Shown one piece after another: positions 10,899 through 37,300 of a DNA stretch of 37,300 bases. Under the pieces are notes generated by a model. The model was given only the letters and a program-made list of their open reading frames with translations, did not search any database and had not been told where the DNA came from. A program made the position numbers and the translations under genes. The stretch spans positions 1 through 37,300 of the forward strand of contig WQVT01000001.1 in NCBI GenBank assembly GCA_009785715.1, given 5' to 3'. Source of the DNA: Acidimicrobiaceae bacterium (GTDB lineage: Bacteria; Actinomycetota; Acidimicrobiia; Acidimicrobiales; Palsa-688). Position 1 is the stretch's first letter; the number at the start of each line of letters is the position of its first letter.

Positions 10899-12089
10899 GT
10901 GCAGAAGCCGGGCCGGGCCGCGATCCCGCCGAGCACGCAGGCTTACACCGATCAGCAGGTGCTGGACCGGCTGCTGCGCGCGCCCACCGCCGCCGAGCGG
11001 TGGACGTTCGAGTTGATGGACTCGACCGCGCGAGTGATAGGTGATCTCACGCCGTACGTGACATACGGAAACTCGACGCTGCAGATCGACACCACGCGCG
11101 ACGTGGTGGCGTCGCTCGCGGTGACGCTGCTGGGCAACCCGATCGACGACATGAACAGCCTGATCCGCCCGCGCTATCAGTTGCAGATGCCGGACGGGGG
11201 CTGGATCGACTTCATGCTCGGGCTCTACAACGTGCTCCCCGCCGGGCGCACGATCAACCGGGGCCACACGACGACACAGGTCAACTGCGCCGACTCGGGC
11301 CAGCTTCTTGCCGACGCCGGAATCCAGTACTCGATGGGCATCGGCAAGGGGCAGAGCTACGTGCAGGCGATCACCTCGGTGGTGGAGACGTACGGCGGCC
11401 GGACGCCGATCGAGGTGGAGATACCGGACAGCGGTAAGCGGCTCCCGGCGGCGCTGTCGTGGAACGCGGGTGCCAGCCGCATCTCGATCATCAACGATCT
11501 GCTGAACGCGATGAACTACTATGGCGCGTGGTTCGACGAGCGCGGGCACATGCGCTCCGGCCCGATCCCCGACTTCGAGACCGCTCGCCCGAGCGCCCAC
11601 TTCGACAGCGCCACCGACTCGATCGTGTACCAGACGGTGACGACGACCCCCGACTTCAGCAACGTCTACAACCAGTTCCTGCTCACGTGCGACCACCCGC
11701 AGCAGTCGGTGGAGTCGAACGCCACCTCGGCAGGCACCGGATTCTTCGCCTACTACGAGAATCGCAACCCGGCTTCGCCGATCAGCGTCCCGCGCTGGCA
11801 TCCCAAGCTCAAGCAGTGGTCGGACTCCACCATCTGCGATCAGGCCACCGCCTACGCCGCCTGCCTAACCGCCGCTCAGGTCTGCGAGCGCATCTTCGAG
11901 CCGATCACGTTTTCGACGCCTGCCTGGCCGCTGTCGCACTGCAATGACATCTACACGCTGCACATACTGGCCGAGGACGAGCCGGACACCGACTACCGCT
12001 ACATCGAGACGGGCTGGTCGATGGCGTTGGGCACCGGCCAGCAAACGACGCACACCTTCGAGCGCATAAGCTATGAGGGGGTGGGATGA
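10899..12089 (+). CDS. Minor tail / baseplate-like structural protein
   Basis: The ORF is open from 10878. I prefer GTG 10899, which lies 6 nt after AGGAGG (10887-10892) and 1 nt after the HNH stop. High GC3 and a position inside the tail module support coding. No specific family recognised. Confidence 0.7.
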   Translation: MQKPGRAAIPPSTQAYTDQQVLDRLLRAPTAAERWTFELMDSTARVIGDLTPYVTYGNSTLQIDTTRDVVASLAVTLLGNPIDDMNSLIRPRYQLQMPDGGWIDFMLGLYNVLPAGRTINRGHTTTQVNCADSGQLLADAGIQYSMGIGKGQSYVQAITSVVETYGGRTPIEVEIPDSGKRLPAALSWNAGASRISIINDLLNAMNYYGAWFDERGHMRSGPIPDFETARPSAHFDSATDSIVYQTVTTTPDFSNVYNQFLLTCDHPQQSVESNATSAGTGFFAYYENRNPASPISVPRWHPKLKQWSDSTICDQATAYAACLTAAQVCERIFEPITFSTPAWPLSHCNDIYTLHILAEDEPDTDYRYIETGWSMALGTGQQTTHTFERISYEGVG

Positions 12090-26181: not shown

Positions 26182-26613
26182 ATGCCGACCCGCATTTACA
26201 ACCGTGGCGTCCCGCTTCTGGATCGGTGGGCCGCTCACGTGATCGCCGAGCCGTCCGGATGCTGGGGCTGGCTTGGCGCGCACACCCCGTACGGCTACGG
26301 CCATCTGAATGTCGGCGGCAGCCGGTACGACAGCGCCTACCGAGTGGGCTATCGGCTCTTGATCGGTGAGGTCCCGGAGGGGCTTGAGCTTGATCACCTC
26401 TGCCGCAATCCGGGCTGCGTGAATCCGACCCATCTGGAGCCTGTCACCCATCGAGTCAACGTCTTTCGCGGTAGTAACCGGAGGATTCAGGCCGCGATCT
26501 CGGGTACCTGCATCAGGGGTCACGGCCCGGACAATTTCGCGTACCGCCCGGATGGCCGCTATCACTACTGCCGAGCCTGTAGACGTCTCTACCGCAAGGA
26601 CAGGCGGAGATGA
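26182..26613 (+). CDS. HNH homing-type endonuclease (copy 3 of 3)
   Basis: Motifs are CWGWLGA...YGYGH...AYRVGY...LDHLCRNPGCVNPTHLEPVTHRVN, followed by CIRGH...CRAC. Confidence 0.85.
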   Translation: MPTRIYNRGVPLLDRWAAHVIAEPSGCWGWLGAHTPYGYGHLNVGGSRYDSAYRVGYRLLIGEVPEGLELDHLCRNPGCVNPTHLEPVTHRVNVFRGSNRRIQAAISGTCIRGHGPDNFAYRPDGRYHYCRACRRLYRKDRRR

Positions 26614-26966
26614 GCCCGCTGCCCGGCATGTCCGAGAAGGAATTCATGCGGACGTTGGTCGGCGATCGACGCCGCCCGGGGATGATCCACATGCTCGGTG
26701 GCCTATGCACCCATTTCAGACCCGGGTATTCCGCCAAGGGGATGGTGACGCCGATCGAAGGCGATGCCGGGTTCCCGGATACATGTATCGTCACGAAGTC
26801 AAATCGGTTGCTCTTCAGGGAATTGAAGGTCGGCCGCAACCGGCTGCGGCCGGAGCAGCAGATGTGGTTGGAGCGGCTGCAGGCGGCGGGAGCCGATGCC
26901 AAGGTGTGGACCGATCAAGACCTCGCGAGCGGGCTCATCGAGCGGGAGTTGATGGCTCCGCCGTAG
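26610..26966 (+). CDS. VRR-NUC domain nuclease
   Basis: ATGA overlap at 26610. The stretch GFPDTCIVTKSNRLLFRELKVGRNRLRPEQQMWLERLQAAGADAKVW contains a PD...E-x-K core and matches the VRR-NUC pattern. Confidence 0.7.
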   Translation: MSPLPGMSEKEFMRTLVGDRRRPGMIHMLGGLCTHFRPGYSAKGMVTPIEGDAGFPDTCIVTKSNRLLFRELKVGRNRLRPEQQMWLERLQAAGADAKVWTDQDLASGLIERELMAPP

Positions 26967-29024: not shown

Positions 29025-29225
29025 GTGGTAAGCGAACGTACGCCGGATGACCGGCTCTCGCTGGCTTCAGAGGGGTTCTGCCCGGACTGTGGGCGCGAGA
29101 TGATGCGCGTGTCTCCGACGGTGTGGCCCGGCGCGACCGGCTACTGCCAGGAGTGCGACACGTTCGTGCGGTTCGAGGGGAGCGCCGCGTTCCCGATCAT
29201 GGTGTGGTGGGGCGGTGCGGATTGA
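29025..29225 (+). CDS. Small zinc-ribbon protein (66 aa)
   Basis: GTG 29025. Two CxxC pairs are present (CPDC...CQEC). The start is uncertain. Confidence 0.5.
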   Translation: MVSERTPDDRLSLASEGFCPDCGREMMRVSPTVWPGATGYCQECDTFVRFEGSAAFPIMVWWGGAD

Positions 29226-30525
29226 AAAGCGCCGGGTAGCCGATCTCACGCCTGCCCACTACAACCCGAGGCGCGATCTGCGGCCCGGCGACCCACGTTA
29301 TGAGCAGATTAAGGATTCGCTCGACCGCTTCAGCCTGGTGCTGCCGCTGGTCTTCAACGAGCGCACGCACCGGCTGGTCTCGGGCCATCAGCGGGTGAAG
29401 GTGCTGCTGCAGGAGGGGGTCGAGGAAGCCGAAGTGTCGGTGGTCGACGTTGACGAGCAGGCCGAGATGGCGATGAATCTGGCGCTCAACAACGTCGAGG
29501 GTGAGAACGATCCCGATCAGTTGCGCGTGGTCTTGAGCCAGTTGGAGAACTTCCGGGGCACCGGCTTCGAGCCGGAGGACTACGCGGCGATGACCGCCGC
29601 CTTCGATGTCGACGATCTGCAGCCGGAGGGCGAGCCGTCGGAGTCGGACTACCGGGCACTGTCACTGCCGTTCATCGTGCAGGGCACGGGTGCCTGCTGC
29701 ATGGCGGTGGCGGCGGGGCTGCAGTACGGGACGCAGTCGCCGCGCAAGCTGTGTGGAAACGCGGCGCAGCCGAAGCACCGGATCACGTTCGTCGACATCG
29801 ACCTGCGGCGTTACGACCACGACCGCCACCTCGCCTACTGCGAGGCGGTGTCGCCCAGGTACGCCGCCACCCGCGACGTGATGACGAAGTCGCAGTGCGA
29901 GAAGGCGGGCATCCCGTACCACCCGCTGGATCGGGTGCTCAGGTGGGCGGAGGAACTCTCTCTGGTCTGCGAGCACGTGGTGGTGGTGCCCAAGTTCGAC
30001 TGCCTGCACGAGATACCGAAGGACTACGTGCTCGGGTATTCGGTGGCGACGAGCTACGGGTCGACGCCGATGCCGTTCACCGCCTTTCGAGGTCGGCAGG
30101 TGCATCTGCTCGGCGGGTCGCCGCAGAAGCAGTGGGAGTACTTCCGCTCGGCCCCCAAGGACGTGGTCTCGATTGACAGCAACTACATCCTGCGGATGGC
30201 GGCGTTCGGTCAGTGGTTCGATCTGGAGACGATGGCGTTCCGGCACATCGACGAGGTGACCGGCAGCCGACACCGGCAACCGGCGATGTCGGCGGCGCTG
30301 GCGTTGTCGGCGCTGAACGTGGCGGAGATGTTCGAGCGGGAGCGTCTGGAGGGCCAGGCGGTGGACAACCTGGTGGACCGGATTCTGGAGATGCCGACGC
30401 CCTACTCACGGGTGCTGCTGGGCGCGTTGGGGCTCTCCCTGTCGAACATCGCGGGGCTGTTCAACCGGGCACCGATCGAGGATGCGATGAAGTCGTTGCC
30501 GTCAAGAGCGAGGGGGACGAAGTGA
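29215..30525 (+). CDS. ParB-N-domain protein fused to an uncharacterised ~290-aa C-terminal domain
   Basis: The N-terminus RVADLTPAHYNPRRDL...SLDRFSLVLPLVFNERTHRLVSGHQRVKVLL...NLALNNVEGENDPDQL is of the type usually fused to DNA methyltransferases. I see no DPPY/F or FxGxG methylase motif in the C-terminal part. Confidence 0.6.
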   Translation: MRIEKRRVADLTPAHYNPRRDLRPGDPRYEQIKDSLDRFSLVLPLVFNERTHRLVSGHQRVKVLLQEGVEEAEVSVVDVDEQAEMAMNLALNNVEGENDPDQLRVVLSQLENFRGTGFEPEDYAAMTAAFDVDDLQPEGEPSESDYRALSLPFIVQGTGACCMAVAAGLQYGTQSPRKLCGNAAQPKHRITFVDIDLRRYDHDRHLAYCEAVSPRYAATRDVMTKSQCEKAGIPYHPLDRVLRWAEELSLVCEHVVVVPKFDCLHEIPKDYVLGYSVATSYGSTPMPFTAFRGRQVHLLGGSPQKQWEYFRSAPKDVVSIDSNYILRMAAFGQWFDLETMAFRHIDEVTGSRHRQPAMSAALALSALNVAEMFERERLEGQAVDNLVDRILEMPTPYSRVLLGALGLSLSNIAGLFNRAPIEDAMKSLPSRARGTK

Positions 30526-31634: not shown

Positions 31635-31830
31635 CTTCGACTGGGCGGCCTTGTCGCCGATCGGGTGGTGCATCTTCCTGATCGGGGTGATGGCGGTCGT
31701 GGTAGTCCTGGTGCATGACTCTGATCCCGAGCGGCGGTGGGCGGTGGAGGGGTTGCTGTGGCTGTCGGTTCGGTTGAGCGAGGCGGCGTCGGCCACGCAA
31801 GCAGCCGCCCGAGCTATTGGCAGCAGGTAG
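31600..31830 (+). CDS. Possible small membrane protein (start uncertain)
   Basis: The ORF contains a hydrophobic helix (IGWCIFLIGVMAVVVVLV). It overlaps the putative 5' end of the terminase ORF, so only one of the two readings may be real in 31737-31830. Confidence 0.3.
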   Translation: MVFYRWGGLRDDFDWAALSPIGWCIFLIGVMAVVVVLVHDSDPERRWAVEGLLWLSVRLSEAASATQAAARAIGSR

Positions 31831-33800
31831 CTGCGGGCTGCGCCGGAGACTTCCTGCAGTACCTCGTGTTCGTGATGGGTGTGATGCCTGCCGAGCACCA
31901 CCTCGTGATCTGCGAGCGGCTGCTGTACGGCACGCCGATGGAGTTGATCCTTGGTCCGCCGGACTCGGGGAAGTGCGTGGCCGGGAGTGACACCATCCCG
32001 CTAGCGGATGGGCGTCGGAAGCTGGCGGCTGAATTGGTGGGCACCGACTTCTCGCTGCTGACCGTGACAGAGGCGGGTATCGAGCCGGTTCGGGCGCACG
32101 CGGAGTGGAACCGCCTGGAGCCGGTCTACGAGGTGATGACCGACTCCGGTCGCCGCATCCGGCGTAACGCCCAGCACCCGCTCTGGTGCGCGGACACGCA
32201 GCGCGACGGATTGCGGGTGCGGCGCACATGGCAGGCGGTTGGGAAGCACGGGTCGGGCCGGATGCTCCTGAAGCGGGAGGGCTGGTGGGCAGTGGCGGAC
32301 ATCCGTCCGGGTGATCTGGTCGCAGTCGCAGCGGAGCTTCCGTATCGCCCCTGGTGCAGCACACTCACCGATGCCGAGGTGGCGTTTCTCGCCTACATGA
32401 TCGCGGAAGGGACGGTCGGCTCGGGGACACTGCGCCTCACGCAGAAGCCGGGCGCGGTGCTTGACGATATGAGGGAGGTCGCGCGATCGGTGGGCTGCGA
32501 TCTGCGGCCGGTCTCCGCGATTGACTACACGGTGGCCGGAATCGGAAACCGACAGGGCCAGGCGAAGCGGCGGAATCCGGGCAAGGAACTGCTGCGGGCT
32601 CACGGCGTACTGGGCAGGCACTCGCGAGAGAAGCGGGTGCCGGACGCCGTCTGGGGGCTGCCGGACCGGCAGGTGGCGCTGTTCTTGAACCGGCTCTACG
32701 CCTGCGACGGATCGGCGCTCGTCAACTGGAAGGTGCGTTGCCCGGTGGGGCTGGTGACTTTCACCTCGGCCTCACGCGGGCTGGTCGAGGATGTTCAGGA
32801 GTTACTGCTCCGGTTCGGCGTGTCAAGTCGCATCCGGCATCGGGAGGCGCAGAACGCGTGGACGGTGGACATCCAGCGGGCGGCCGATCTGCTGGCGTTC
32901 GCGACCAAGATCGGGGCGCTCGGCAAAGAGGCGCGGATCGACGAGGTCCGGCGGTTCGCCTCGACGCGCCGCAATCTCCAGCGGTGGCGACGGGCCGGGT
33001 TGCCGGACGGTCTTCAGTGGGAGCGTGTGCGGTCGGTCACGTACACGGGCGATGAGCGGACGGTGGCGATCGAGGTGCCAGGTCACCAGACGTTCCTGAG
33101 CACGTTCTGGGAGCACAACACCACGATCATGGTGGGCTACATCACCTGGACTTTGGGGCGGAATCCGAACTACCGCTGGCTGGTCGCGAGTGAGGGTGCA
33201 GTGGGGATCGCGACGGTGACGGTGACGCAGGTGGCGGAGACGATCGCGGCGAACGAGCGTTACCAGATGGTGTTCGGGGCGTTGCGTGATCCCCGAGGTC
33301 GGGGTGAGTGGTCGTCGCAGTCGATCAGGTTGCGCACGTATCTCTCGACGCGGGAGGCGGCGCGGCTGCATCAGCCGCCGAGTCCACCGGCACCGCCGTG
33401 GCTGCAGTTGCCGGAGAGGAGCAAGCCGCCGATGGCGACGATGATCAGTCCGCGCCGGGGTCGGGATGCGGCGCTGGCGCATCCCAACGTGAAGGCGGTG
33501 GGGTGGCGGTCGGGGTACACGGGTGTTCGGTGTGAGGGGATCGTGTGTGACGACCTGGTGTCGGACCGATCGTCGCGTTCGGAGGCGATGACGGACGCGA
33601 TCCACTCGACGCTGCACCAGAAGCTGTTGGCGCGGTTGACGGGTCAGCAGCAGCGGGTGGTGGTGTTGGGTCAGCGGTGGGCACCGAGGGACCTGTACGG
33701 GCGGCTTTTGGAGTCGTCGACGGTGTCGTTCAACAGCAACCCCAACAACGAGGGGTTGGAGGTCTTGGAGGGGGTGGAGGAGGAGCCAGGGCTGGATTGA
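31737..33800 (+). CDS. terL: Terminase large subunit, ATPase part, interrupted by an intein; no nuclease domain recognisable
   Basis: The exteins read ...FLQYLVFVMGVMPAEHHLVICERLL...LILGPPDSGK | TTIMVGYITW... (Walker A GPPDSGKT restored after splicing). Later motifs are GIVCDDLVSD (Walker B-like) and VVVLGQRWAPRDLYGRLL (RWHxxDL-type coupling motif). The ORF stops 27 codons after that motif. The start codon is uncertain between 31737 and ~31830. Confidence 0.75.
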   Translation: MGGGGVAVAVGSVERGGVGHASSRPSYWQQVAAGCAGDFLQYLVFVMGVMPAEHHLVICERLLYGTPMELILGPPDSGKCVAGSDTIPLADGRRKLAAELVGTDFSLLTVTEAGIEPVRAHAEWNRLEPVYEVMTDSGRRIRRNAQHPLWCADTQRDGLRVRRTWQAVGKHGSGRMLLKREGWWAVADIRPGDLVAVAAELPYRPWCSTLTDAEVAFLAYMIAEGTVGSGTLRLTQKPGAVLDDMREVARSVGCDLRPVSAIDYTVAGIGNRQGQAKRRNPGKELLRAHGVLGRHSREKRVPDAVWGLPDRQVALFLNRLYACDGSALVNWKVRCPVGLVTFTSASRGLVEDVQELLLRFGVSSRIRHREAQNAWTVDIQRAADLLAFATKIGALGKEARIDEVRRFASTRRNLQRWRRAGLPDGLQWERVRSVTYTGDERTVAIEVPGHQTFLSTFWEHNTTIMVGYITWTLGRNPNYRWLVASEGAVGIATVTVTQVAETIAANERYQMVFGALRDPRGRGEWSSQSIRLRTYLSTREAARLHQPPSPPAPPWLQLPERSKPPMATMISPRRGRDAALAHPNVKAVGWRSGYTGVRCEGIVCDDLVSDRSSRSEAMTDAIHSTLHQKLLARLTGQQQRVVVLGQRWAPRDLYGRLLESSTVSFNSNPNNEGLEVLEGVEEEPGLD
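31974..33119 (+). mobile_element. Intein (382 aa) with a LAGLIDADG homing endonuclease, inserted in the TerL P-loop
   Basis: It begins with Cys (CVAGSDTIPLADG) directly after GPPDSGK. It ends ...VAIEVPGHQTFLSTFWEHN, followed by a Thr +1 nucleophile. The two LAGLIDADG blocks are FLAYMIAEGTVG and FLNRLYACDGSA. Confidence 0.85.
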
Positions 33801-34905
33801 GGCGGCTCGGCCTGTCGGGAGTGGCCGGGTTGGACGGGGTCGTCGTCCGGGCTGGGTAGGGAAGGCATGTCGGGGACGAGTTGGGCCGGGGTGGGTTGTC
33901 GGTGACAGGTGTGGTGCGGACTGTCGCCGGGGGGCGGGGCGGATCGGTATGTCTCGGCAGGATTCGGCATGTCGGGTCGGAACGGTTCGGCCCGCTCGGC
34001 TTGTCTGGGATGGTCGGCATTGAATCGGATCGGCATGTCGGACAGGGCTGATCAGGTGCGGGTTGTCGGTGTGACAAGGACGGGTTGGGTCGGGCAAGGT
34101 TTGTCGGGTGGAGGGCAAGGCTCGGGATGGCATGTCAGCGAGGCATGGTCAGGCGTGTCGGCCAGGCATGGCTGTGGTTGGGCTCGTCGGGCGCGGCATG
34201 GGACGGGACGGTCGCGGCCAGGCATGTCGGTGTGGCTGGGAGCGGTTTGTCGTCGGAATAGGCGTGGCGTGGGATGTCGTGGACGGATAGGCATGGGATG
34301 GCCTGGGATGTCGGGGCGGTGAGGTGAGTCGGGGAGTGGCGTGTCCTGGCCTGTCGGGTGGGCATGTCGGGGGGCGAGGCGTTGGCGTGGGATGGACAGT
34401 CGGAGTGGCCCGGCAGGTACTGGATAGGTCTTTCGGATCGGCGAGGCATGGGGCGGGAGCAGACCTGGCGCGGCCTGTCGGTCGGGAAGGGGGGGTCGGA
34501 TTGTCGGTGCGGAACGAACGGGGATGGGCAGGACAGTCTTCGGGACTGGTAGGGCTCGGCTTGTCGGTGGGGAGTGAGGCGTGGTGGGGGTCGGATTGTC
34601 GTTCGTCGGGGGGTGGGAAGGTGTGGACCGGAGTGTCGGCACGGGTTGGAGTGGAGCGGCATGTCGGACTGGGCGGGGCAAGGGTTGTCGGGGTGGTCCG
34701 GACGGTGGAGGGGTGGCGTGGAGTGTCGGGCGGGAATAGGGACGGGTCGGGTAGTCGGCGTGGAGTGGGCCGCAGAGGGGTGGCCTGTCGGATCGGTGCC
34801 GGAACGGGCGGGGTCGGCCTGTCGGAACGGATTGGGGGGGCATGTCGGCACGGTTCGGCGTGATCCGGACTGGGATGTCGGGTGGTGCGGATAGGTGAGG
34901 GGTGT
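33801..34905 (+). repeat. G-rich non-coding array of same-orientation GGCNTGTCGG motifs (23 exact TGTCGG cores plus about 12 degenerate)
   Basis: See the first finding for the coordinates of every exact copy. No CCGACA occurs on the + strand in this interval. The copies fall in all three phases. Confidence 0.8.
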
Positions 34906-34906
34906 C

Positions 34907-35554
34907 CTAGGCGATCTGCTCGAAGTCGATCAAGTCGAAGGTGCCGGAGCCTTGTGAGCGGTCAGCGCCGAGGCCGCCGTCCTGGAGGTATTCGAGGATG
35001 GTGCGGAGGTGGGTTTCTTTGACGATGCCGTCTCTCAGGATGCGGATGTTGAACTGGAGGGGGACGTCGGTGGCGTATTCGACGGCTTTGAGGGAGGTGC
35101 GAGGACCCTGCATGGTCATGACCTGGATGGGTCGTTCTGTGAGGTGGAGGATGTCGCCGGGCTGGTGGGTCTCACCGCAGCCGCAGATGATGGGGCAGCC
35201 GCCGATTCTGGGGTCGACGAAGACGCGTTCTGCGAGTTTGGAGCGGAAGTTCTTGACATCGAGGACGCCGGAGCGGGAGGCGGTGGAGCCGAGGATGTTC
35301 GCGGCCTCTTTGATGGCGGCTTTCATGGCGCGGGACTCGTATTCGGGGGAGCCGTCGGGGGCGCGCCAGAAGATGGTGGTGTGGGTGTCTTCGGGGTTGA
35401 ACTCCTGTCGGATGGCGAGTTGTTGAGCGGCCTGGTCGGCGGCATCGGCGGGGGCTTTGTTGGAGGCGAGCCAGGCGTCTATCAAGCGTGGGTTGCCGGG
35501 GAAGCCGCCGGTCAAGCGGTGGGCGTGGGCGCGGAAGAGGAAGGTGTCGAACAT
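34907..35554 (-). CDS. Hypothetical protein (215 aa) with a C-terminal RAMP-like glycine-rich loop
   Basis: High GC3 with C-ending codons. The C-terminus LQDGGLGADRSQGSGTFDL has the GhGxxxxxGxG spacing seen in Cas5/6/7 RAMP proteins. The CPIICGC cluster is unexplained. The family is unknown to me. Confidence 0.6.
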   Translation of the reverse strand: MFDTFLFRAHAHRLTGGFPGNPRLIDAWLASNKAPADAADQAAQQLAIRQEFNPEDTHTTIFWRAPDGSPEYESRAMKAAIKEAANILGSTASRSGVLDVKNFRSKLAERVFVDPRIGGCPIICGCGETHQPGDILHLTERPIQVMTMQGPRTSLKAVEYATDVPLQFNIRILRDGIVKETHLRTILEYLQDGGLGADRSQGSGTFDLIDFEQIA

Positions 35555-35596: not shown

Positions 35597-36412
35597 CTAT
35601 CGGGAGGGTCCGTGGAAGGAGCGACCTTTGGGGAGTGGGCGGATGGGGAGGCGTTGTGGCTCGCGGCGGCCTTTGTTGTAGGCGGCGAGGAACTGTTCTG
35701 CCATGGCCTGGTCGATCCGCTGGTGCTGGAGGAGTGAGAGTTCCTTGGCGGCGGCCATGACGCGGGAGGGTTTCAGGAAGCGGAATTTTTGAGCGACGCC
35801 GTTCTGGGCGGCTTCGGGGTAGGCCCCGAGGAATGCGACAAGGCCATCCAGGAACCAGGTGTGACAGCAATCCTGGTCATCTTCCCAGACGTCGTGGATG
35901 AGGGAGAAGGCGGTTTCGAGGGTGCCGAGTTCGACGCCGCGCACGAGGGGAGCGGTGGCAGCGATGGCCTTGGTGCGGTGTTTGCGACCGGCGCGGTCCA
36001 AGCGGTAGCCGAACTGGGTGAGGATGCGGTGGGCTTCGACGGCGACGGGGTCACCGGCGGTGATGCGGGCCTGGAATTCGGCGAGGGCGACGAACTGCTT
36101 GCGGTTCTGGTTCAGGTCCAGGCATAGCTGGGCGGCCTTGGCTTGGGAATCGACATCCCAGTGGACGCGAGCCCAGAGGGCGGTGATGTGGAAATGGCGG
36201 GCGTTGATGAGTCGAGTGCCGCCGTCGGCTGCGCAGAAGATGCCGTTCTGGGCTTTGGTGGGGCGGGAGTCGAGGTCGGGGTAGGAGTCGATGTCGTGGG
36301 CGAGGTCTGGCCGCCAGGCGTCCCAGAGGGCGTGGTTCTTGCGGGTATTGACGAGCGGGTCGATCTTCAGATTGGCGACGGGCAGGAGTTCGCGGGAGAT
36401 GCGGTCGTCCAT
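35597..36412 (-). CDS. ParB/Srx-fold-like protein (271 aa), third in the window
   Basis: The N-terminus LPVANLKIDPLVNTRKNH...GIFCAADGGTRLINARHF resembles the ParB-N DGxxR core. High GC3. Confidence 0.5.
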   Translation of the reverse strand: MDDRISRELLPVANLKIDPLVNTRKNHALWDAWRPDLAHDIDSYPDLDSRPTKAQNGIFCAADGGTRLINARHFHITALWARVHWDVDSQAKAAQLCLDLNQNRKQFVALAEFQARITAGDPVAVEAHRILTQFGYRLDRAGRKHRTKAIAATAPLVRGVELGTLETAFSLIHDVWEDDQDCCHTWFLDGLVAFLGAYPEAAQNGVAQKFRFLKPSRVMAAAKELSLLQHQRIDQAMAEQFLAAYNKGRREPQRLPIRPLPKGRSFHGPSR

Positions 36413-36418
36413 TGGGTC

Positions 36419-36823
36419 CTAGTTCCAGTGCTGGAGGGGGAGTTGGCGCACGGCGGCGCGGAGGAGCGAGATGCTTTCGGGGTCGAGGCTGTCGAGGAGG
36501 CGCTGGCGGTTGCGTTTGAGGAGGCGCTGGCAGGCGCGGAGTTCTCTGGTGCGAGCGGGGTTCGGGGGGTAGTGCTGATCGGCTTCCAGGAAGACATCCA
36601 CGAGGTGGCGCGAGTAGTGGGCATTACGGACATCCCACTCGGCGAGTGGGTTCAGGGGGATGGCGAAGTCTTCCACCGGGTGGTCGAGCAGCGGCTCGGG
36701 GTGGAGATAGGGGTGGCGACGGCTGGCGGGGACGCCGTCACACCGCGCACAGCAGTCGCTCGTTGGCCGCCAGTGGGTTGCGCCGCATTCAGAGCAGCGT
36801 TTGGCGGCGGATTTTCGGGCCAT
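36419..36823 (-). CDS. Zinc-ribbon protein (134 aa), first gene of the leftward operon
   Basis: I prefer ATG 36823 (MARKSAAKRCSECGATHWRPTSDCCARCDG...) over the longer ORF to 37078, whose upstream part has poor coding character. Confidence 0.55.
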   Translation of the reverse strand: MARKSAAKRCSECGATHWRPTSDCCARCDGVPASRRHPYLHPEPLLDHPVEDFAIPLNPLAEWDVRNAHYSRHLVDVFLEADQHYPPNPARTRELRACQRLLKRNRQRLLDSLDPESISLLRAAVRQLPLQHWN

Positions 36824-36971
36824 GCCCCAAATGCTCGCAGGTTCGAAACGCACCAATTTCGAAAGAAAGTGGCTCAAACGCCGCGCGCGCGCGCGTATTC
36901 GGTGGGCGGTGAAAAGTTGCCGTCCGGGGAGGGTAGCGGTAAGGGGTCGGGGAGTGTTAGGGTCCGGGTAG

Positions 36972-37010
36972 CAACAAAGAGAGCCGCCACCCGCTCGACC
37001 ATGGGTGGCG
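36972..37010 (-). terminator. Candidate leftward intrinsic terminator
   Basis: 8-bp stem CGCCACCC / GGGTGGCG (36985-36992 / 37003-37010) with a 10-nt loop. On the minus strand it is followed by CTCTCTTTGTTGC. Confidence 0.4.
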
Positions 37011-37300
37011 ACCCTCACGAGTCTTCGTGTTGCTTGCCCAACACGGCGACCGGGCATAAGCGTACAGGAGAGCGGCAACGAAGGGGTAGCGCCCTCTGTC
37101 GCAGAGGTGCGCAGGAGAGCCGTCAGAGGGAGACGTTTTTCGCGTCTGCTGGGACCAGAGCAGGTTCAGGCGAACGCGGTGCGGACGGACGGGTGCGAGC
37201 GACGACGGCTCGGAAAAAATCGGTCGGGGCAACACTGGGCGGGGGGCTAAGGCGTCTCGTGTAGGCTTCGACGCCCAGACAAACCAAACCGGTCCCGGCC

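Follow-up and report, generated by a model that had tools for sequence, protein, structure and literature searches.

A large terminase split into two genes within its ATPase domain in a phage lineage

The large terminase (TerL) gene is a hallmark of tailed phages and serves as a phylogenetic and completeness marker and as a guide to packaging strategy. In contiguous TerLs of the Terminase_6 or T7 gp19 type (phrog_38; PDB 4BIJ and 8DGC chain E), a single chain carries Walker A, Walker B, motif III, a β-strand with the lid, and an RNase-H-like nuclease with its acidic residues, in this order. Essential genes can nevertheless come in pieces. The herpesvirus terminase gene UL15, a eukaryotic analogue, consists of two exons with opposite-strand genes between them, the exon border lying between Walker A and Walker B and not after motif III. 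T4-like phages offer further examples of "genes in pieces", such as nrdA of Aeh1, which mobE splits, and the split gene 43 DNA polymerase; two separately translated polypeptides reassemble into an active essential enzyme, and the homing-endonuclease gene that caused the split is still there. In Jug jumbo phages, terL is split by group I introns, with splicing proven by RNA sequencing (PMC12880540). Here, we analyze a 37,300-nucleotide stretch of DNA (the window), the reverse strand of positions 3347-40646 of the 56,191-bp metagenome contig ena:ERZ27257300:k141_1261267, which encodes the ATPase half of a TerL interrupted by an intein, and we locate the other half beyond the window.

We report a large terminase encoded by a pair of genes, with the division between them falling within the ATPase domain. 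This state is conserved across the phage lineage and is the new finding. The fold and the motif order are those of contiguous TerLs, but the chain is cut between the helix that follows motif III and the next β-strand, the two genes lie 0.7-6.9 kb apart and both new ends carry extra conserved peptides. As in Jug phages, the terminase ATPase gene is in pieces on one strand, and as in UL15, genes on the opposite strand lie between them; the Jug pieces and the UL15 exons are united in the RNA and yield one polypeptide, whereas here no intron is detectable and the termini are conserved coding sequence. In contrast to Aeh1 nrdA and mobE, no endonuclease gene was recognized in the gaps between the terL halves, many of whose open reading frames (ORFs) are unannotatable. 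A full-text literature search for a split or two-gene TerL returned only the intron-split Jug case and no paper on a two-polypeptide TerL.

Two genes that together cover one TerL

The first gene, terL-N, is the ORF at 31737-33800 (+ strand), whose 687 residues comprise the TerL ATPase core and the intein; the gene call of the source contig uses a GTG start at 31758, giving 680 amino acids. The Walker A sequence GPPDSGK lies at 31953-31973 (+) and would be completed by the Thr codon at 33120-33122 only after protein splicing, while in alignments of the intein-free orthologues GPPDSGKT/S reads uninterrupted. Walker B (GIVCDD, 33537-33554, +) carries a DD pair that is invariant in alignments including contiguous TerLs, and motif III (the C-motif; GQR, 33669-33677, +), the final canonical TerL motif in the gene, aligns with GTR of contiguous TerLs. 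The hallmarks of an ASCE (additional strand catalytic E) ATPase, Walker A once spliced, Walker B and motif III, thus all align to contiguous TerLs. The conserved ATPase sequence ends after VVVLGQRW...DLYGRLL, shortly past motif III, and is followed by a conserved C-terminal tail, STVSFNSNPNNEGLEVL (33717-33767, +; family pattern VVVYD-x-NP-xx-EGL-x-VL), then by an acidic end and the TGA at 33798-33800 (+). The preliminary description of this locus had counted 27 codons after ...GRLL; the remainder is short, as it said, but holds 29 codons, and the tail within it is conserved across relatives.

The spliced extein measures 305 amino acids, in agreement with the earlier estimate. In a profile search it matches the TerL family phrog_38 (E=5e-28) over positions 290-465 of 760 only, and its match to T7 gp19 stops at residue ~216. 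Similarity to TerL therefore ends at profile position 465, past motif III, and the lid and the RNase-H-like nuclease are not on the same polypeptide as the ATPase core, which bears out the description of this ORF as a TerL ATPase lacking these parts and not a complete TerL with a nuclease fold. A tblastn search of the whole window with a C-half nuclease protein likewise gave no match, so that no nuclease domain lies up to nucleotide 37300, as had been proposed. An AlphaFold2 (AF2) model of an N-half orthologue (P0002) has a predicted local distance difference test (pLDDT) score of 85.7, with only the tail unconfident when modeled alone. Its top Foldseek matches are TerL ATPase domains: 8DGC_E (PhiV-1, E=6e-10), 4ZNL and 2O0H. 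The TerL ATPase domains matched include those of P74-26, T4 and HK97, and phi29 gp16 is among the structural matches. As a separate observation, one sub-branch of N-halves (P0005, P0006 and P0007) carries a ~35-residue, four-cysteine zinc-ribbon insertion upstream of Walker A, seen at L006 10001-10972; the TerL-N of the window is without it.

The second gene, terL-C, starts 2,748 nt past nucleotide 37300 with its own ATG, at window-equivalent position 40048, and runs on the same (+) strand to 40646 (contig positions 599 to 1), where the contig ends. The resulting 199-residue fragment reads MRRRTREGTQAEREGRPWTATLLKAVNADGSLLWPEHNS...AHDLAIS...GVEAV, and its ATG overlaps the stop of the preceding 167-residue ORF (ATGCGTAG). 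In the same profile search it matches phrog_38 positions 466-625, directly continuing the 290-465 of terL-N, and it aligns to contiguous TerLs immediately after motif III. It contains the next β-strand, the lid helices (LWPEHNS...QDP) and the RNase-H-like nuclease. The nuclease Asp (AHDLAIS) and Glu (GVEAV) are present in the fragment; the third acidic motif, HDD, falls beyond the contig end here and is present in all full-length C-half orthologues. C-halves begin with a conserved basic head, RRTR..P..E..G[RK]PW. The preliminary description had considered that the gene might be interrupted by a large insertion and resume beyond the window, or that a nuclease exon might lie just outside it in a conventional arrangement. 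TerL sequence does resume there, as a separate ORF with its own start and not as the remainder of one insertion-broken gene, and the nuclease ORF is there in an unconventional arrangement. Nor is there a need for the nearby HNH, VRR-NUC or ParB-like proteins to supply the packaging nuclease in trans, as had been suggested, since terL-C encodes a canonical TerL nuclease.

An AF2 model of a C-half orthologue (P0015) has a confident nuclease core, while its first ~70 residues, the strand and the lid, are unconfident when modeled alone. This is the pattern expected if the segment folds only against the N-half. The model matches the nuclease domains of TerLs and of the herpesvirus terminase, and both halves find their best structural match in 8DGC_E. 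In ASCE ATPases, the strand that follows the motif III helix is an edge strand, an established topology, and its supply from another chain is therefore plausible. We also considered whether the contig might be circular, so that its other end would complete terL-C. It is not: the two ends share no overlap, and at the far end (L021 1-2697, L022 3-3467) the contig breaks off within a LamG-like gene of 1,154 residues or more. The genome must therefore exceed 56 kb, and it is not closed.

Conservation of the split and how it may work

A search with a fused N+C query returned N-half-only and C-half-only proteins, and contiguous TerLs only at 23-24% identity. The N-half-only proteins have 280-325 residues, except one of 724 residues with the same intein, and the C-half-only proteins, which carry PF17289 (Terminase_6C), have 319-341 residues, except one of 641 residues with an intein-like insert. 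Both halves occur in N-to-C order on one strand at seven independent loci, from separate assemblies and counting this contig, the N-half proteins being 49-79% and the C-half proteins 39-66% identical. The gap between them spans 0.7 kb in L004, 1.1 kb in L007, 1.8 kb in L003, 2.0 kb in L006, 4.3 kb in L010 (an 89.8-kb IMG/VR contig), 6.2 kb in this contig and 6.9 kb in L008, where it holds 12 leftward genes. When 1.84 billion representative proteins were scanned by HMMER with an N-half profile, 9 matches fell below 1e-30, all of them N-half-only; the next scores lie at 1e-19, where ordinary TerLs of 450-600 residues begin. The preliminary description had raised the possibility of an uninterrupted TerL at this locus in related phages, but the gene is split at all seven loci with both halves, and contiguous TerLs appear only in distant relatives, such as those in IMG/VR at 24-28% identity. 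A scan of Joint Genome Institute (JGI) metagenomes yielded nothing beyond a duplicate of L006 and a single fragment. An assembly artefact is ruled out by the seven independent assemblies, and a redundant copy is unlikely, no second TerL being found in the 56-kb contig.

Judged by their substitution patterns, both halves are under purifying selection. Among the closest pairs, the ratio of nonsynonymous to synonymous substitution rates (dN/dS, by NG86) ranges from 0.14 to 0.20 in N-halves and from 0.25 to 0.40 in C-halves, figures that are upper estimates because dS is saturated. In the N-half tail, the conserved pattern covers the final ~17 residues ahead of the acidic end, and N, P, G, V and L are invariant among 10 N-halves. 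Variation at the three codon positions of the tail is 0.29/0.29/0.45, third positions varying most, and substitutions concentrate at third positions in the tail and head segments alike; these segments are therefore translated. Tails have a net negative charge in most members and heads a net positive charge in all.

We think it likely that the large terminase of this lineage is made as two polypeptides that are rebuilt noncovalently after intein splicing. In this proposal, TerL-N would be produced as a 687-residue precursor whose intein breaks the P-loop between Lys and Thr, and splicing would have to restore GPPDSGKT before ATP can bind. Spliced TerL-N, of ~300 residues, would then join the ~325-residue TerL-C without a covalent bond to form a complete ATPase-lid-nuclease unit. 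The contacts would probably consist of edge-strand complementation at the break, aided by the mostly acidic TerL-N tail and the basic TerL-C head. The transcription contexts would differ, with terL-N closing a rightward replication and nuclease block and terL-C opening a block that contains the portal gene in relatives, and the gap between the halves would be a variable cargo island. In L004, a GC-rich hairpin with a T-run (11504-11537) resembles a terminator; it comes after the last gap gene and precedes the terL-C start by 70 nt.

Several points weigh against this proposal. We infer the binding and the activity of the two proteins, and hence their function, from conservation: none of the phages of this lineage is in culture, and neither GenBank phages nor 185,579 reference genomes yielded a match. 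GenBank phages hold no close DNA or protein relative of the region or of the N-half, the best C-half match being a 26% identical Acinetobacter phage TerL, and no prophage relatives were found in the reference genomes, so that no host is assigned. The terL-C of this genome is known only as a 199-residue fragment, cut off by the contig end. The L004 terminator is predicted from a sequence pattern seen in that one relative, and any intron or trans-splicing element missing from Rfam would escape the scan described below.

The split could instead be a remnant, with terL broken by a mobile block made of the G-rich array and cargo genes described below and the phage defective, much as the preliminary description suggested in proposing a truncated gene in a defective prophage. 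The contig is incomplete, and the terL-N stop in this genome is indeed immediately followed by ~5 kb of additional DNA that its closest relatives do not share. Yet the break point, stop, start, tail and head are kept at seven loci down to ~40-50% identity with dN/dS well below 1, the catalytic motifs are intact in both halves and no contiguous close relative exists among the 1.84 billion representatives; as an explanation of the split itself, this idea is already refuted, and we give it next to no credence. It is very improbable, too, that the halves are exons joined by a group I or group II intron or by trans-splicing into one mRNA and a single TerL polypeptide. The Jug phages set a precedent proven by RNA sequencing (PMC12880540), and the break adjoins a conserved motif, the type of site that introns favor. 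No intron family was detected, however: none of 4,227 Rfam families matched at the gathering score in 92 kb from five loci, and at E<=1 the smallest gap (0.7 kb, L004) gave only a chance match to a small RNA. Sequence just inside the would-be intron is not a non-coding flank but the tail and head, conserved as protein with a third-position bias; gap genes lie on both strands (leftward here and in L008), the terminator-like site of L004 stands in the way, and the C-half starts from a separate ATG, which is coupled to the stop of an upstream ORF.

Joining might also happen at the protein level, through a cryptic split intein or other chemistry in the tail and head. In favor of this, the two junction peptides are conserved, nothing equivalent exists in contiguous TerLs, and the lineage is rich in inteins (the P-loop intein here and in P0007; an insert in the nuclease domain of P0012). 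But the tail shows no conserved starting Cys, Ser or Thr nucleophile in a block A context, the head shows no His-Asn plus nucleophile before PW, the two peptides (~30 and ~18 residues) are too short for a Hint fold, and a Pfam search detects Hint or intein domains nowhere but at 31974-33119; we find such ligation scarcely credible. Somewhat less remote, though still improbable, is that the two proteins form no stable complex, TerL-N acting as a phi29-like translocase and TerL-C as a free maturation nuclease recruited by TerS, HNH or the portal. Packaging motors consisting only of an ATPase do exist (phi29 gp16 being one of the structural matches), the halves lie in different gene blocks and HNH and VRR-NUC genes are nearby. 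The cut, however, is not at the border between ATPase and nuclease: ~70 residues of the ATPase domain (WPEHNS...QDP) go with the nuclease, and these are predicted to be unfolded alone, which argues for complementation with TerL-N. As a possible origin of the split we considered an overlapping duplication; tail and head both resemble the same strand-loop of contiguous TerLs by eye, but hhalign of tails against heads gave no significant match (E=0.21), leaving the idea unsupported.

The same break may have arisen more than once. A number of short proteins, only distantly related, stop at this point of the profile as well (phrog_38 position ~465), and the window halves also match two short "terminase large subunit" families, phrog_4758 (243 positions) and phrog_5573 (250 positions). 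Two metagenomic TerL lineages, L024 and L025, are cut at the same profile position, with a C-half ORF that starts with the next strand (VFIVRAI..WPERFP and KVILYTAY..LWPERFP, respectively). In L024 (6001-7571) the halves overlap by 4 nt, and in L025 (4216-6095) two small genes lie between them; unlike the window lineage, to which they are only ~25-30% identical, both are without the YDxNP..GL tail. The loop after motif III may thus be a recurrent fission site. No relatives of the L024 and L025 split lineages were found in IMG/VR, and tblastn searches for cultured phages with the same split (queries P0085 and P0035) had only contiguous TerLs among their top matches. Mycobacteriophage ScottMcG gp245 (Pham3880), described with an ATPase domain of only 75 residues, was examined as a precedent and dismissed; it has 1,007 residues with an intein and is not C-half-only.

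More tentatively, and as a whole less likely than not, the terminase motor might be an obligate heteromer whose ATPase domain is completed in trans by the strand and lid of the nuclease subunit, with its genes in different transcription units, a gap that serves as a landing pad and a break in a loop that is a recurrent fission site. Packaging and cutting would then require the expression of both gene blocks, which would amount to a temporal AND-gate; the gap between the halves, itself conserved, would accept variable cargo, and the loop would be a structurally permissive site reused independently in several TerL lineages. A TerL in two genes kilobases apart will be misread as truncated or defective and mis-scored by marker-based tools. 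With the cut inside the ATPase domain and not at the linker between ATPase and nuclease, the pair would be a natural fragment-complementation system for studying how lid and nuclease are coupled to the ATPase core in translocation and cutting, and if noncovalent rebuilding is correct, a working P-loop motor here would require splicing of the intein followed by assembly of the subunits, both after translation. Avs sensors recognize TerL, PDB 8DGC being Avs3 bound to the PhiV-1 terminase, and we speculate that a split target could alter Avs immune recognition.

An intein in the P-loop of TerL-N

The intein at 31974-33119 (+) is a class-1 intein of 382 residues with a LAGLIDADG homing-endonuclease domain. 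Its Cys1 is encoded at 31974-31976, its terminal His-Asn ends at 33119 and the +1 Thr lies at 33120-33122, the termini of a class-1 intein. Pfam matches LAGLIDADG_3 (E=2e-17) and, below the Pfam cut-off, Intein_splicing (E=4e-4); together with a Hint region it has both LAGLIDADG motifs, LAYMIAEGT and LYACDGS, which retain their acidic residues. These termini and matches, with a homologue at the same site in P0007 (51% identical, E=2e-123), uphold the intein call made from the sequence alone. So does the insertion point, exactly between GPPDSGK and T, at the Walker A Lys/Thr junction: removing the insert restores the motif as read in intein-free orthologues. The distribution is sporadic and fits a mobile intein, given that an intein occupies the same site in P0007 but is missing from about 12 other N-halves.

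The insertion site itself is already known. A "classic" P-loop intein site has been described in Terminase_1-type TerLs of mycobacteriophages (TerL1-a; Kelley et al. 2016, PMC5050341). Like those inteins, the one described here occupies the Walker A Lys/Thr site, carries a LAGLIDADG domain and is sporadic among close relatives. Its host, in contrast, is a TerL of the Terminase_6 type, for which only C-motif inteins are reported (PMC5050341), and it sits in half a TerL, unlike the classic mycobacteriophage P-loop inteins.

A further insert was observed in a C-half relative, P0012 (from a contig of 5,046 bp). Residues 281-597 form a 317-residue insert with Cys1...His-Asn/Cys+1 termini and a low-complexity middle, lying within the nuclease HDDV...DA motif. 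Judged by these features, a mini or degenerate intein has probably inserted into the active site of the C-half nuclease.

The gap between the halves and neighboring genes

In this contig, the gap from terL-N to terL-C measures 6,247 nt. The closest relatives have gaps of 0.7-1.8 kb, and gap content among relatives is mostly unshared. The two genes were already separate in the ancestor of the lineage, and what is peculiar to this genome is only the size of the gap, with its array and leftward genes. One small zinc-ribbon gene (CPGCG...) is the sole gap gene common to the three closest genomes (L001 592-1095, - strand, just past the window; L004 10869-11171; the L003 gap). In the present contig it lies immediately before terL-C and its stop overlaps the start of that gene, while in L004 it comes directly after terL-N. 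The gap ORFs of this contig match no HNH, GIY-YIG or LAGLIDADG domain; for the gap ORFs of the relatives no Pfam match is on record, a weak test given that many of them are unannotatable.

The gap opens here with a G-rich motif array (33801-34900) that directly follows the terL-N stop, as the preliminary description stated. It holds 37 GTCGG in one orientation within 1.1 kb (23 of them as TGTCGG), against ~3 per kb elsewhere. The array is non-coding and has the core GG[CG]NTGTCGG, whose copies are unevenly spaced, often 24-30 nt apart; inverted repeats are absent. From either side, terL-N and a leftward 215-residue gene converge on it with their 3' ends, and a weak DUF6551 gene lies near. We would guess that it is an array of protein-binding sites. 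It is absent from the gap of every relative, which rules it out as part of the split architecture.

Three leftward ORFs follow: a 215-residue cargo gene without a family match (34907-35554, -), a 271-residue cargo gene with a weak DUF6551 match (35597-36412, -; E=9e-4, below the cut-off) and a Cys-rich ORF of 219 residues (36419-37078, -), for which the gene call of the contig has 134 residues (36419-36823). The rightward part of the gap begins at 37079-37300 (+), and its ORFs of 45, 276, 78, 160 and 167 residues lie beyond the window. The 160-residue ORF has ribbon-helix-helix (RHH) and phage zinc-binding matches. The 276-residue ORF, considered as a TerS, looks helix-turn-helix-like by eye and has no family match.

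HNH genes near the terminase are often terminase accessory factors in cos phages. Upstream of terL-N lie an HNH_3 gene (26182-26613), a weak VRR_NUC match (about 26610-26966) and a DUF6610/ParB_N-like gene (29215-30525), and this nuclease-like cluster is partly conserved in L004. Relatives also carry queuosine/archaeosine genes upstream of terL-N, QueC in L006 (80-805) and QueF in L004 (6200-6643), and their presence hints at DNA base modification in this phage group.

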